Source of the DNA: a virus
Lineage: Duplodnaviria; Caudoviricetes
IMG/VR virus record: IMGVR_UViG_3300024998_000001
Span: 1-56,037 of that record
Reading direction: 5' to 3' (one strand)
Length of the DNA: 56,037 bases
In this document: positions 122-55,940 of the stretch, piece after piece
Position numbering within the stretch: the stretch's first letter is position 1
How the letters are laid out: every line of letters starts with the position of its first letter
Position numbers and translations under genes: made by a program
The notes under the pieces: model-generated
What the model was told of the DNA's origin: nothing
Database searches by the model: none
What the model saw: the letters and a program-made list of their open reading frames with translations, nothing else

Positions 122-195
122 TGGCTGGGGGACTAGGATTCGAACCTAGACTGGCGGAGTCAGAGTCCGCTGTCCTACCGTTAGACGATCCCCCA
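122..195 (-). tRNA. tRNA-Gln (anticodon CTG), intact, CCA encoded
   Basis: Reverse complement reads TGGGGGATCGTCTAACGGTAGGACAGCGGACTCTGACTCCGCCAGTCTAGGTTCGAATCCTAGTCCCCCAGCCA. It has anticodon stem GCGGA/TCCGC around CT-CTG-AC, T-loop GTTCGAATC and a 3' CCA. Confidence 0.97.
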
Positions 196-4118: not shown

Positions 4119-4333
4119 TTCTTCCTCCTCTTCATCACCACGACAGGGACAGCGCGGTAGCCCATGCGCCTTAAGTCGGCGCGCGTTGCTCCTGGATCGG
4201 CGCTCCACATCTCATGTGCGCGCCATGCTCCCGCTCTAGTGCTGCGGATGTCGTCAAAGTAGGGGAACCTGCCTTCCGGCCCCACCACGACCCATCCCTT
4301 CACAGGCTTCAGAGGTTTGCGTTTGATCGTCAT
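4115..4333 (-). CDS. Hypothetical protein
   Basis: ATGA/GTGA coupling on both sides. Confidence 0.55.
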   Translation of the reverse strand: MTIKRKPLKPVKGWVVVGPEGRFPYFDDIRSTRAGAWRAHEMWSADPGATRADLRRMGYRAVPVVVMKRRKK

Positions 4334-5229
4334 GAGATTGCCCTCGGATATGTGTTGTGTTCGACGCCGTCGAGCAGACGGCCAGCGCGCTTCTTGCCGA
4401 GCCGATAAACCCATTCGCCGTTGTCTTCGAATGGGTATAGCTCGTAACCGTTACGCGCATATCGCCACGCTTGGCCGCTCCATACGGCGCATCTGGCTTG
4501 GCCGGCCATAATGGGGTCTCGTCCATCGGAGGTTGGTCCGGTATCGGGCGCCCACTCGCCCCACTGTTTAAAGTGGTAGGGCACATCATTGACCGCGCAC
4601 TGATCGCGTAGCGAGCGTGGCCAATCGGGATCCATAGGTCGTGCGTCGGGGCCGCTCTCGCCGCCGCAGATCACCCAATCGGGAATCGTGCTTCCCATGT
4701 CGATGGGACCCAGCATGGGTTCGACGCTGACGAATGAAAACAGAGCGCCTAGATATTTGCTGGCGTATCTCAGCTTCTCGGCGTCACGATCCCATTCGGT
4801 CTGATTGACCATTGTGGAGCCAAGCGCTGCGTTCGCTGGCAAGCCTCGGCCAAGGTCGTAGCAATGTCGGATTGCATTGCCGATGCGCTTGGATAGCAAG
4901 AGCCAGATAAGCCATGGCGTCTTATCCATCAGATCGAATAGATCAGCGCGCCACTGCTGCGGAACCTCTTTGTCCCAGATATCGCCAAGCGAGAGACAAA
5001 AGACGGTCGCGCGCTTCCCTGATTTTTCCGCAGCCTTGTTCCAGCGGATCGGCTGATGCCAATTTGACGGCGACGTGCGCTTGCGCGGTCCGCCCCATGT
5101 CACCTTGCCATAGCGGTGGTCCATCAGCGCCTCGGCATAGCAGTGATCACATGCCGGGCTCACCTTCATGCAGCCAATCCACGGATTAAAAGTGTGGTTG
5201 CACCATTCTATCTTGCTGTTCGCGCCCAT
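4330..5229 (-). CDS. Phage Gp37/Gp68 (DUF5131) radical-SAM-like protein
   Basis: SKIEW..HTFNPWIGC.KVSPACDHCYAE three-Cys motif, FVSVEPMLG, WVICGGESG, HFKQWG. Confidence 0.9.
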   Translation of the reverse strand: MGANSKIEWCNHTFNPWIGCMKVSPACDHCYAEALMDHRYGKVTWGGPRKRTSPSNWHQPIRWNKAAEKSGKRATVFCLSLGDIWDKEVPQQWRADLFDLMDKTPWLIWLLLSKRIGNAIRHCYDLGRGLPANAALGSTMVNQTEWDRDAEKLRYASKYLGALFSFVSVEPMLGPIDMGSTIPDWVICGGESGPDARPMDPDWPRSLRDQCAVNDVPYHFKQWGEWAPDTGPTSDGRDPIMAGQARCAVWSGQAWRYARNGYELYPFEDNGEWVYRLGKKRAGRLLDGVEHNTYPRAIS

Positions 5230-6938
5230 TAGAACAGCACCTCGCTTGCGCGCACGGCTGCGCCGTCGTGTTCCCATAGGCGTTTTGCCTTCATCCGCTG
5301 CAGGTACGCGTCACGGCTGGAACGCTTGTATCCGGTCATTTCATCCAGATCGGCGCGAGCGACCGAACCGGGATAAGCGTCGATCAGACATTGCAGGATT
5401 TTGCGTTCGCCTTCGGGGAGACGGGATAGCCAATATTCCTGAAGGCCAGCACCAGTCGGCAGCGGCTCATAATCGGCCGGCAGAGCAGCTTCGCCATCTG
5501 GCGTCATGCGGATGGTCGATCCATCCACTTCGACAAAGCCCTTTTCCCGAAGCCGCTGGATATAGGCGTCCCGGGAGGATCGCTTGTAGCCGGTGAGGAT
5601 CGTCAACTGCTCGCGCTCAACGCCGCCGAATTGCGCCGCGGCGATCAGGACAGCGCGCTCGCCGGGAGGCAGTGTGATATAGGTGCGGCGGCCGATATGA
5701 GGGGCCACAGCCTGCGGGCGATTGTCAGGCGGCGAAACGCGCTTCACCGACGCAGTGGGCGCAGTGGCGAATTTCAGATCAGGCGAGACATTTGGTGCGT
5801 CAGGCGCCGCTGCCATTGGCAATGCGCTGATAGCAGCCATCTGGTCCTTGGCACCTCTCTGATGCCCGGCACGCCATCCGGCCTTCCATCCGGCGCCGTA
5901 GCCTTCTGCCAGGCCTTCACGTTTCCCAGAGCCAAATGCGGCCTCACGGTCTTTGAGGGCGGCGGTGCCGTCACCCGCCGGCGCAGACTTCTTCGCGAGT
6001 TCGGCCCGGAGCTTTCCGATCTCCGCGCGCAGCGACTTCGGGTCGTTGGCCGTGACCTCTGCTTCGACGGTCGCCAACTTGTCTTTCAGTGCCCCCAGAT
6101 CGATGGGCTTGAGCGTGGCGGCCCGGACCCGCTCACCACGTTTGGGCGTGCGGCTGGAATCGAAAGTCGTCTTCGACGGAAAGGTCGCTTCCTTCAGAAT
6201 ACCGCGCGCGGGAATCCAGATGACCCCTTCGCCCCGCTTCTTGGTGGCGAGACCGGCACGGATTGCCTGCCATTGGGCCTTGTCGGCCGTGGCTTCGATC
6301 CAGCCGCCGACCGCATCCTGATCCTGCTTCGCCGTGAGTTTGAGGGCGATAATTCCGTCTGCCTGGCTCAGCACGTCCTTGCTGAGCACGGCCGGACGCT
6401 GGGTAAGCAGCCAAGGAATGAAGCCCTGTACCCGCCCACGCCGGACGATGGTCTCCATCATCCCGAGCAGCTTGGCGGCATCCCCGTCCTTATCCAGTAG
6501 CCGCTGGGGCGCGAACATATCCGCCTCATCCACGATGAGATGGACAGGCTCTTTGTCGGCGTTTCGATAAAGGGCTGTCAGGAACGCCAGCATGAACCGG
6601 CGTTCCGCCGCTTTGGTTCCAAGCTCGCTCAGGTCGATGATGCAGGAATCGCGTGACGTGGCCACGGCCTCGCCAATGATCGCGCCGGCATGCTCATTGA
6701 TCGGCAGATCGCCATGTGCGCCGCCGAAAATGACCGGCTGAAACCGGGAAGGTGTCTTGCCATCCGCATCCAGCCGCAGGCCCCAAGCCACGCCGAGGGG
6801 GTCCACCAAGATCACACGGGATGAACGAGCCTGCAGGTGTTCGACCGCGCCAAGCGTCAAATAGGTTTTGCCAGCCCCCGCCGTGCCGATGACGGCCAGC
6901 CGGTCGTCTAGGGCTTCATCTGGAAGAGGATATTTCAT
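5229..6938 (-). CDS. HerA/FtsK-like (DUF87) ATPase with C-terminal tandem winged helices
   Basis: Walker A GTAGAGKT, Walker B LIVDEAD, RRGR..G, TQRPA; duplicated TGYKRSSRDAY.QR repeat. Confidence 0.8.
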   Translation of the reverse strand: MKYPLPDEALDDRLAVIGTAGAGKTYLTLGAVEHLQARSSRVILVDPLGVAWGLRLDADGKTPSRFQPVIFGGAHGDLPINEHAGAIIGEAVATSRDSCIIDLSELGTKAAERRFMLAFLTALYRNADKEPVHLIVDEADMFAPQRLLDKDGDAAKLLGMMETIVRRGRVQGFIPWLLTQRPAVLSKDVLSQADGIIALKLTAKQDQDAVGGWIEATADKAQWQAIRAGLATKKRGEGVIWIPARGILKEATFPSKTTFDSSRTPKRGERVRAATLKPIDLGALKDKLATVEAEVTANDPKSLRAEIGKLRAELAKKSAPAGDGTAALKDREAAFGSGKREGLAEGYGAGWKAGWRAGHQRGAKDQMAAISALPMAAAPDAPNVSPDLKFATAPTASVKRVSPPDNRPQAVAPHIGRRTYITLPPGERAVLIAAAQFGGVEREQLTILTGYKRSSRDAYIQRLREKGFVEVDGSTIRMTPDGEAALPADYEPLPTGAGLQEYWLSRLPEGERKILQCLIDAYPGSVARADLDEMTGYKRSSRDAYLQRMKAKRLWEHDGAAVRASEVLF

Positions 6939-54407: not shown

Positions 54408-54438
54408 TCAGTTGGCGCAACAGCTTGGCGGCGTAGCC

Positions 54439-54807
54439 ATGGCACAGGTCAGCAAATACCTCCGCCGCGTTGGAGGCGGCTACGCGCACTGGTGTCCGGG
54501 TTGCGGCGAGACCCATGTCATATTTGATCGGTGGGCATTCGACGGGAACGTGGACAAGCCAACGTTCAATCCCAGCGTCAAGATCACCGGCAAGCAATGC
54601 GTGATCGTCGACGGAGAATGGACGGGGGAATGGGTGCGCGATGCCAACGGCAATGCGGTGGATATGTGTTGCCATTACTTCCTTCACGCGGGCCAGATCG
54701 AGTTTTGTGGTGACTGCACGCATTCCTTGAGCGGCAAAACCGTGCCGCTTCCAGAGTTGAAACCCGCGCCCGGCGGTTCTGGGCAATCGCAGAAGCAGGA
54801 GAAGTAG
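54439..54807 (+). CDS. DUF6527-family protein
   Basis: WCPGC...H....W.F.GN..KPTF.PSV...CHYF...GQI.FC.DCTH. Confidence 0.75.
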   Translation: MAQVSKYLRRVGGGYAHWCPGCGETHVIFDRWAFDGNVDKPTFNPSVKITGKQCVIVDGEWTGEWVRDANGNAVDMCCHYFLHAGQIEFCGDCTHSLSGKTVPLPELKPAPGGSGQSQKQEK

Positions 54808-54808
54808 C

Positions 54809-55153
54809 ATGTTTACGATTAAGCACATCAACGCCGCAGGAATTGAAGAGCTCTATTCGAGCACCAAATGTCGTTTCCACCCGAAAGGGCTGTGCAACGG
54901 TACAGCACTCAATAGCGAGAGTTCTGGGATCATTCATTTAGACGGCGTGACCACACTGCACGGCGGTACAGTTTTTGTAATGAATGAGACAGGAAAGACC
55001 GTCGCGCGATATGATCTCGGCGCATCGCCAGTTCCGATTGTCGGAGACGGATTAAGCGACCCCCGGCCGTTGGGCACCGGAATGCCGGACGCATTTCCCG
55101 TCCAAGACGTTGGGATCTGCCACCAAACGATTCCGCCCAATCAAGCATCGTGA
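54809..55153 (+). CDS. Hypothetical phage protein
   Basis: MFTIK...VFVMNE.GKTVARY.L pattern. Confidence 0.65.
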   Translation: MFTIKHINAAGIEELYSSTKCRFHPKGLCNGTALNSESSGIIHLDGVTTLHGGTVFVMNETGKTVARYDLGASPVPIVGDGLSDPRPLGTGMPDAFPVQDVGICHQTIPPNQAS

Positions 55154-55159
55154 TATACT
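55151..55159 (+). promoter_or_regulatory. Extended -10 promoter (TGnTATACT)
   Basis: TGATATACT ends 5 nt before the tRNA-like acceptor stem. Confidence 0.65.
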
Positions 55160-55164
55160 GAATT

Positions 55165-55358
55165 GCTGCGGCGGCGTGGAAGCAGAAGGTCTTGAAGCGG
55201 CTCGTCCGCGTAGGGATTAGAGACACGCGATGCCATAGCCTACCGGCCCAGATCAGGCCGTCCCTTATGGCTGGTGTAAGGCAGATTGCCGAGAAGTGCG
55301 CACATCGAGAGATGGCCAGGGAGTAGGCAGCCTCATTAGCGCGAGGCCCGCAGCACCA
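55165..55358 (+). ncRNA. Enlarged tRNA-like structured RNA with ACCA 3' end
   Basis: GCTGCGG/CCGCAGC acceptor plus ACCA; D-like stem GCGTG/CACGC; T-like arm GCCTC-8nt-GAGGC adjacent to the acceptor; upstream promoter and downstream terminator; no credible ORF. Confidence 0.7.
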
Positions 55359-55364
55359 CTAGCT

Positions 55365-55405
55365 CCCCGCCGGACATGACCTGAAAGGGTCCCCGGCGGG
55401 GTTTT
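55365..55405 (+). terminator. Intrinsic terminator hairpin
   Basis: ccccgccgg / ccggcgggg stem with an inner gacct-GAAA-gggtc, followed by tttt. Confidence 0.7.
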
Positions 55406-55435
55406 CATTACCTTCCGTTAGCTACCTGTGATTCA

Positions 55436-55466
55436 GCCCGCTCACCTCACGGTGGGCGGGTTTTCT
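55436..55466 (+). terminator. Second intrinsic terminator
   Basis: gcccgctcacc / ggtgggcgggt followed by tttct. Confidence 0.7.
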
Positions 55467-55481
55467 GTTATATGGGGACGC

Positions 55482-55754
55482 CTACAGCGCGTCCTTTGGC
55501 ATCTCCTGCCAGCCCTTCTGCATGTTCTCCCAGCTCGGCACGGTGAAGGTGGGATTGTTCTTGCTGCACTTGCTGCACACAAGCGCGCGCTGTGCCCGGC
55601 TGTAGGTGGCGTCAGGTCCTAGCTTTGTAATCAACGTGGCGATGCGCGCGGCGCGCGGAGAGCGGCGGCACTTATTGCAATGAACCCAAATCCACCGGCT
55701 GTTGAGAGCCATCTGGGCGAGTGTGATTTCGGGTTCAGCGTCGCGTTTGCGCAT
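55482..55754 (-). CDS. Small zinc-ribbon protein, predicted SOS-regulated
   Basis: CNKC...LI...GPD......L.CSKC; the ATG at 55754 directly follows a LexA box. Confidence 0.7.
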   Translation of the reverse strand: MRKRDAEPEITLAQMALNSRWIWVHCNKCRRSPRAARIATLITKLGPDATYSRAQRALVCSKCSKNNPTFTVPSWENMQKGWQEMPKDAL

Positions 55755-55756
55755 GA

Positions 55757-55771
55757 GAACGAGAGAAGAAC
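55757..55771. promoter_or_regulatory. Alphaproteobacterial LexA (SOS) box
   Basis: GAAC-gagagaa-GAAC (GTTC-N7-GTTC on the minus strand), 2 nt upstream of the ATG. Confidence 0.75.
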
Positions 55772-55910
55772 AAACGTCCGGCAGAGTCCAGCCGCTACAT
55801 GTTGTGGACGAGGCCATTCTCAACATTTAGCACTGTATATTCTAACCGATTGAATCTGCTCAGGCGGTTTTTGAGGACGATTGCTATAAGTCTTTGATCT
55901 GCAATCTGCG

Positions 55911-55940
55911 CCGCTGTCCTACCGTTAGACGATCCCCCAA
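55911..55940. repeat. Right attachment core (5' fragment of tRNA-Gln)
   Basis: Exact copy of 167-196. Confidence 0.95.

Follow-up and report, generated by a model that had tools for sequence, protein, structure and literature searches.

A candidate non-coding RNA cassette of a provirus, with a conserved frame around a putatively exchangeable body, beside a tRNA-Gln attachment site

A non-coding gap close to the right end of a provirus (positions 55151-55468 of the 56,037 bp analysed here, which we call the window and which form a complete IMG/VR provirus record) holds what we consider, with about an even chance of being right, to be a moron-type, independently transcribed phage non-coding RNA cassette that is built as a conserved frame around an exchangeable body. 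The frame would comprise a promoter and a 5' strand, together with a 3' strand, a linker and a terminator, and the body is taken to be exchangeable because an unrelated phage at the same att site has the same frame around an unrelated body. Read in this way, an extended -10 element (55151-55159) would start transcription at about position 55165, the resulting transcript of about 190 nt would be rich in GC and in hairpins and would be clamped at its ends by a 7-bp helix (55165-55171 with 55348-55354), and transcription would end at an intrinsic terminator at about 55405 or about 55468. The function of the cassette is probably trans-regulatory. The original prediction for this region, a giant, CCA-ended tRNA, finds no support, and the cassette is itself a candidate, not a discovery.

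Genomic context and elements of the candidate RNA gene

The provirus is bounded by att sites in the form of 30-nt direct repeats (167-196 and 55911-55940) and is integrated at a tRNA-Gln(CUG) gene (122-195, minus strand), the 5' part of which constitutes the att repeat. A tyrosine integrase is encoded at 245-1276 on the minus strand, and the early genes include those for a cI-like HTH plus S24 repressor, an RNase_T-type exonuclease, proteins with PDDEXK (DUF3799) and AAA-ATPase domains, and DnaB. At the right end, a DUF5675 gene is followed by genes for a holin and a DUF6527 protein (54412-54807) and by an ORF of 114 aa without a known family (54809-55153). The non-coding gap lies between this ORF and a convergent ORF, likewise of 114 aa (55482-55826, minus strand), and has the lysis/accessory genes on one side and, at a distance of about 450 nt, attR on the other.

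The integration site is itself unusual, in that the att repeat consists of 29 nt from the 5' end of tRNA-Gln(CUG) and one further base, not of the usual 3' part of a tRNA gene (122-196 and 55911-55940). Because the repeat covers the 5' part of the tRNA, the intact tRNA-Gln at the left end has a phage-supplied 5' half; this intact gene is located directly downstream of the integrase gene, and the native upstream region stays with the displaced 5' fragment, beside a ppx-like host gene. The closest placement of this ppx-like host flank reached only about 69% DNA identity. The early genes also include one for a DUF5131 (phage Gp37/Gp68-type) protein (4333-5277, minus strand; E = 6e-74).

All elements of the candidate RNA gene are on the plus strand. 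The first of them, the 28-nt 5' island (55149-55176), takes in the stop codon that closes the upstream ORF, the -10 element and 12 bases at the start of the predicted transcript. The extended -10 promoter-like element, TGATATACT (TGaTATACT, 55151-55159), is a predicted promoter without a good -35 element and overlaps the TGA stop of ORF 54809-55153; we infer a transcription start at about 55165. The sequence TGNTATACT occurs once in the window, and at least once in 22 of 100 shuffles. The 5' strand of the closing helix, P1 (GCUGCGG, 55165-55171; pair probability 0.92-1.0), is followed by a variable, GC-rich, multi-hairpin body (55172-55347), which ends in a robust 5-bp hairpin that abuts P1 (the T-like arm, GCCTC-(8 nt)-GAGGC, 55330-55347), and then by the 3' strand of P1 (CCGCAGC, 55348-55354) and the letters ACCA (55355-55358). 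Terminator 1, with a hairpin at 55365-55401 and a U run at 55402-55405, was obtained from the ViennaRNA fold and is contained in an 81-nt segment (55356-55436), whereas terminator 2, which forms the 3' island (55435-55468), was identified by a terminator scan that placed its hairpin at 55435-55462. Both terminators that had been proposed to follow the RNA were thus recovered, and reading of the sequence confirmed the -10 element, the heptamers with ACCA, the paired stems and the T-like hairpin, as well as the proposed pairings GCGTG/CACGC, GCGG/CCGC, GCCATA/TATGGC, CGGCC/GGCCG (with the 7-nt loop CAGATCA), GGCA/TGCC and CATC-GAGA-GATG. For the small ORFs within the region, neither Pfam nor PHROG contained a match at E ≤ 0.09.

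A conserved frame around unrelated bodies

The frame is apparent from comparison with G001, a 21.4-kb provirus fragment represented by three records (two in IMG/VR and one metagenome contig) that shares the tRNA-Gln att site of the window and has a related host. When the whole G001 record was compared with the window by blastn, only four pieces were common to the two: the att repeat, a stretch of 281 nt that combines att arm and host flank (95% identity), a 28-mer corresponding to 55149-55176 (100% identity), and a 31-mer corresponding to 55437-55467, that is, terminator 2 (100% identity). In both phages the 28-mer starts at the stop codon of the preceding ORF, which in G001 is a different and unrelated one, and the 28-mer includes TGATATACT along with the first 12 bases past the inferred start. 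Between the two islands, G001 has a body of about 250 nt that shows no similarity to the body of the window by global alignment or k-mer comparison and that contains no related or convincing ORF.

A 3' heptamer located 15 nt before the terminator of G001 pairs with the common 5' heptamer, with a terminal G.U pair in place of G-C (pair probabilities for the first heptamer of 0.39-1.0 in G001 vs. 0.92-1.0 in the window). With the G.U pair, an RNA helix on the plus strand is kept, whereas a DNA palindrome or a helix in a minus-strand RNA would be broken. The recurrence of the 3' helix strand is not independent evidence, however, because it may be inherited within the conserved frame, and the comparison covers two distinct bodies, plus near-identical variants known as lists of differences only. 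The sequence after the closing stem is AAUCA in G001 vs. ACCA in the window. In the predicted fold of G001, a second long-range helix is stacked on the closing helix, with an 11-nt spacer and no abutting T-like arm, and the stability of this fold relative to shuffles corresponds to z = -1.47.

The extended -10 element that is 100% conserved in G001, the terminators, the lack of a coding signal and the position adjoining attR are all properties of a moron-type sRNA gene. The claim of a separate transcription unit made in the original prediction accordingly stands as far as the conserved -10 element, the terminators and the lack of any family match go, whereas the activity of the promoter is a matter of prediction. 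The bodies could plausibly have been swapped by short-homology recombination at the two islands, an exchange that the RNase_T-type exonuclease, the PDDEXK-domain (DUF3799) protein and the AAA-ATPase protein of the phage might support.

On the phage side of the attachment site, about 150 nt of att arm (55757-55910 of the window and 1026-1179 of locus L108) are 95% identical between otherwise unalignable proviruses. Together with the common tRNA-Gln site, this likeness suggests a common integration module on different phage backbones. The comparison also shows the zone between terminator 2 and att to be a cargo hotspot. In G001 (locus L064, 263-1062), this zone contains extra accessory ORFs in a stretch of lower GC content, one of which encodes what we take, by eye, to resemble a staphylococcal-nuclease-type protein.

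Variants in sequencing runs

At least half of the sampled words were present in each of 17 DNA runs from seven bioreactor/wastewater metagenome studies, one of which may have yielded the record itself. A contig from a soil DNA run carries the body of the window with six differences over 158 nt; in this contig, 14 other letters replace 55356-55436, followed by terminator 2, and 12 of these 14 letters are those of the G001 linker. Because the soil DNA variant carries a G001-like linker instead, terminator 1 amounts to an 81-nt insertion or deletion difference. The same variant has one extra A ahead of ACCA, and the ACCA that follows P1 in the window is best read, from these alignments, as a putative remnant of the conserved linker, not as a tRNA 3' end. 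In the bioreactor run X2, a 9.6-kb contig ends in terminator 2, which is preceded by a third and different upstream sequence; within its last 30 letters, this third sequence has no complement to the 5' heptamer. The linker of the soil variant and the third upstream sequence of X2 would both fit modular exchange.

A soil RNA library, which we counted once because its two runs are nearly identical in size, yield the same contig and were probably filed twice, holds a 221-nt contig that covers 55196-55416 at about 95% identity (10 differences, depth 2.3; DNA carry-over is possible). This contig extends about 10 nt beyond the U run of terminator 1, and the contigs of the library provide no cover of 55050-55195 or beyond 55416, although at such a depth neither these gaps nor the contig ends carry weight. 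Among the five of the 10 differences that are listed, 55309 G>A leaves a GNRA-type tetraloop intact, 55379 A>G converts an A-U pair of terminator 1 to G.U, and none falls in the ACCA at 55355-55358. The RNA-library contig is compatible with transcription of the region.

Predicted fold and the tRNA-like reading

The 194-nt RNA has a minimum free energy of -75.7 kcal/mol (ViennaRNA), and 36 of 200 dinucleotide shuffles fold equally well or better (z = -0.82). Support from the structural ensemble amounts to 0.92-1.0 for the closing stem, ~1.0 for the T-like hairpin and 0.57-0.93 for several small hairpins, whereas the D-like stem (0.10) and the outer anticodon-like stem (0.00) are disfavoured. 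When the cloverleaf proposed earlier was enforced and completed, its energy was -71.7 kcal/mol, that is, 4 kcal/mol worse than the minimum. The cloverleaf connectivity had been described as exact, which is not confirmed by the probabilities of the D-like and outer anticodon-like stems or by a stability no better than that of shuffles; as modelled, the cloverleaf represents one of several drawings and is statistically unremarkable by itself. Of 5000 shuffles, 79 had a perfect 7-nt complement of the first heptamer in the last 40 nt, and 436 had one anywhere in the body; the closing stem by itself is therefore only modestly unusual, given that a matching heptamer arises in 1.6-8.7% of shuffles. 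If the transcript is extended to terminator 2, the probability of the closing helix drops to about 0.2.

Scans of the whole window with ARAGORN and with Rfam at gathering scores detected nothing but the tRNA-Gln at 122-195, and a search of 55000-55600 against Rfam at E ≤ 10 produced no tRNA or tmRNA, only weak terminator-type matches far below the thresholds. The expectation that no canonical tRNA would be recognised in the region, and that Rfam and ARAGORN would place the RNA in no described family, was thus borne out, as was the proposed loss of the conserved tRNA loops. The tertiary signature of a tRNA includes a 7-nt T-loop with a U-turn motif and GG in the D-loop; the T-like loop here consists of 8 nt (AUUAGCGC) without the T-loop consensus, and neither U33 nor purine 37 is found. 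The acceptor-like 7-bp stem, the abutting T-like arm and ACCA are present in the window but are not kept among its relatives. With two of the four arms disfavoured and the CCA out of register in the relatives, the prediction of a giant, CCA-ended tRNA mimic that is charged finds no support, and the suggested processing by RNase P would have no 5' leader to act upon because the inferred start at 55165 coincides with the first base of the stem.

For a tmRNA, there was likewise no match in ARAGORN or Rfam, and position 3 of the stem forms U-A and not G3:U70. Bacterial Y RNA (YrlA) gave no Rfam match, and TROVE is absent from the 56-kb record (in the controls, TROVE was found in 2 of 14 genomes); the search of the phage genes detected no member of the TROVE (Ro), RtcB or PolyA_pol (CCA-adding) families. 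The RNA is no homologue of tRNAs, and mimicry of a tRNA is improbable.

Several other kinds of element were considered and rejected. For a retron, RVT_1 is absent from the record and the RNA is followed by a terminator, not by an ORF; for a diversity-generating retroelement (DGR), there is no RT and there are no repeats. An attP arm site was rejected given the distance of the region from the core, which is about 450 nt here and about 2.9 kb in G001, and a cos site was set aside by inference, on position alone.

Searches for further members and targets

Genuine further members were sought by exhaustive exact-word scans, which miss diverged copies, in viral, metagenome and species-genome collections and by alignment, and none came to light beyond the G001 type. 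The 20-mer of the 5' island matched only the two G001-type records among viral contigs, and one G001-type contig plus one unrelated sequence among metagenome contigs. A 17-mer of the same island had 39 exact matches in 185,579 species genomes, none of them genuine or extending beyond 21 nt, and a 5' 16-mer without the stem matched 14 stretches, of which the genuine ones were the two of the G001 type only. Scans of viral contigs with the 3' island returned only G001-type records, and this island, with up to 3 mismatches allowed, was found in 0 of 401 genomes of the likely host order. By blastn, there was no match in the GenBank phage and PLSDB plasmid collections, and the 401 sampled genomes of the order that best matches the host flank gave two weak matches, one to a terminator hairpin and one apparently inside a coding sequence.

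The 3' 16-mer (55343-55358), made up of the 3' strand of the T-like arm, the closing strand and ACCA, matched 37 stretches in viral contigs, none of which aligns beyond 17-32 nt, and ARAGORN predicted no tRNA at any of them. Many of these matches (loci L004-L040) share one of two coding-like contexts, which presumably represent a conserved terminase motif, judging by eye. The recurrence of the 16-mer appears to be a coincidence, without homology to the RNA.

Searches with the neighbouring proteins led to two distant loci for the upstream 114-aa ORF, 20 loci for the DUF6527 protein and a single locus, that of G001, for the downstream 114-aa ORF; none of the 22 distant loci (2 + 20) has a similar region or a module of promoter, closing stem and terminator. 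As regards antisense targets, neither body shows perfect complementarity of more than 12-13 nt to its own phage. In the full-text literature, no description of such an element was found. The element is rare.

Alternative explanations

It is possible, at a probability well short of even, that the gap has no dedicated RNA function and is simply the 3' untranslated tail of the late/lysis operon with its terminators, the islands being recombination linkers in mosaic phages. Such a reading agrees with fold energies that are not better than those of shuffles, with the frequency at which the closing 7-mer arises in shuffles (1.6-8.7%), with a 28-mer that begins exactly at the upstream-ORF stop codon in both phages, as is typical of a mosaic joint, with the further accessory ORFs between terminator and att in G001, and with the limitation of homologues to this small group in the collections searched. 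It has to contend with 28 of 28 and 31 of 31 identical bases in phages without other likeness outside the att region, with a 5' island that is placed as a -10 element plus initial transcribed sequence, with the closing complement that is retained in an unrelated body while G-C becomes G.U, and with an RNA library that holds a contig of this non-coding stretch. That the same flanks hold different bodies and that the heptamers form an inverted repeat would also be expected of an element acting at the DNA level, in which the 7-bp repeat either delimits a small non-autonomous insertion or serves for protein binding or recombination, and the body is inserted DNA and not a functional RNA. We consider this very unlikely: target-site duplications are missing, no extra copies of either body occur in the window, in G001 or in the collections searched, neither a transposase nor an extra recombinase is encoded nearby, and the G.U pair of G001 is a mismatch in DNA.

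The reading closest to the original prediction is a giant tRNA mimic, in which a 12-bp acceptor/T-like minihelix with discriminator A and CCA would serve as a decoy for RNase P, the CCA-adding enzyme, a synthetase or a defence nuclease. No helices of the fold are more robust than the 7-bp stem and the hairpin of 5 bp that abuts it (probability ~1.0), and ACCA follows them in both the window and the RNA-library variant, but we hold this identity to be highly improbable. There is no tRNA or tmRNA match even at E ≤ 10; the D-like (0.10) and outer anticodon-like (0.00) stems hardly form; the 8-nt T-like loop has no T-loop motif, and U33 and purine 37 are missing; in the soil DNA variant CCA has moved by one base, and its counterpart is UCA in G001, from which the abutting hairpin is missing as well; an RNA starting at 55165 would have no leader for RNase P; and the phage is without a TROVE, RtcB or PolyA_pol family gene. 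The least probable reading of all is that the body encodes a short peptide and the cassette is a small-protein moron. An open frame of 44 codons with a TTG start does exist (55192-55326), and one of the two listed body differences of the soil variants is synonymous in it; the other difference changes a residue, however, the sole purine-rich stretch is 2 nt from the TTG, there is no ATG, the best family matches have E values of 0.13 and 0.21, and the G001 body contains no related or convincing ORF.

Under the preferred reading of an RNA cassette, the RNA would be made in lysogens, the end-clamping helix would insulate and stabilise the body, and the RNA would act in trans as a regulator, sponge or decoy. 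A more far-reaching version, to which we attach a very small probability, is that the frame is an RNA scaffold of temperate phages that displays interchangeable bodies of about 200 nt; here, the 7+5-bp minihelix with ACCA would mimic the top half of a tRNA and engage a tRNA-handling enzyme of the host or a tRNA-targeting defence. If so, different bodies would confer different counter-defence or regulatory specificities.

Relation to known phage RNAs and significance

Small RNAs of prophages, or RNA 'morons', include DicF, IsrK and anti-sRNAs of the AgvB/AsxR type, and prophage-encoded sRNAs are the nearest known kind to the candidate described here. Further examples are the Pas sRNAs, which are encoded by prophages of pathogenic E. 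coli (bioRxiv 10.64898/2026.05.13.724894). The candidate resembles prophage sRNAs in being a free-standing non-coding unit with a promoter-like element and an intrinsic terminator, and in its location in the accessory region of a temperate phage, where it is rare, fast-evolving and patchy. It differs from them in length (about 190-250 nt vs. about 60-100 nt) and in being clamped by a 5'-3' helix. Moreover, no seed, Hfq-type module or target was found in the candidate, which has no sequence or Rfam relation to these sRNAs, and its host is alphaproteobacterial-like.

Bacterial Y RNA/YrlA provides a precedent for tRNA mimicry (PMC4201824). Features in common with YrlA, as with tRNA (RF00005) and tmRNA, are the 7-bp terminal helix with the abutting 5-bp hairpin and ACCA, in the window member only, and a multi-branch junction. 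The candidate differs from these three RNAs in that it matches none of the models, lacks T-loop and D-loop signatures and has disfavoured arms; its CCA is not conserved, the Ro gene is absent, and G001 is not cloverleaf-like.

Other phages provide short constitutive transcripts with a promoter at one end and a terminator at the other, namely the '6S' transcript of lambda (PR'-tR') and the RNase P-processed immunity RNAs P4 CI and P1/P7 c4, and in heteroimmune relatives the flanks of these RNAs are kept while the specificity part differs. The candidate is like them in being bounded by a promoter-like element and a terminator, with flanks that are kept and an inner part that differs. Unlike them, it is located at the end of the late region and not at its start, with nothing downstream to antiterminate, and, unlike P4 CI and P1 c4, it matches neither the C4 model nor any other phage RNA model of Rfam, and the phage contains no antisense partner for it.

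If the RNA is real, the small set of phage-encoded RNAs known outside enterobacteria would gain a long non-coding member with clamped ends. Its evolution would be unusual, the frame being retained base for base while the body is replaced wholesale, and such replacement within a retained frame would suggest diversifying selection on the recognition target of the RNA.
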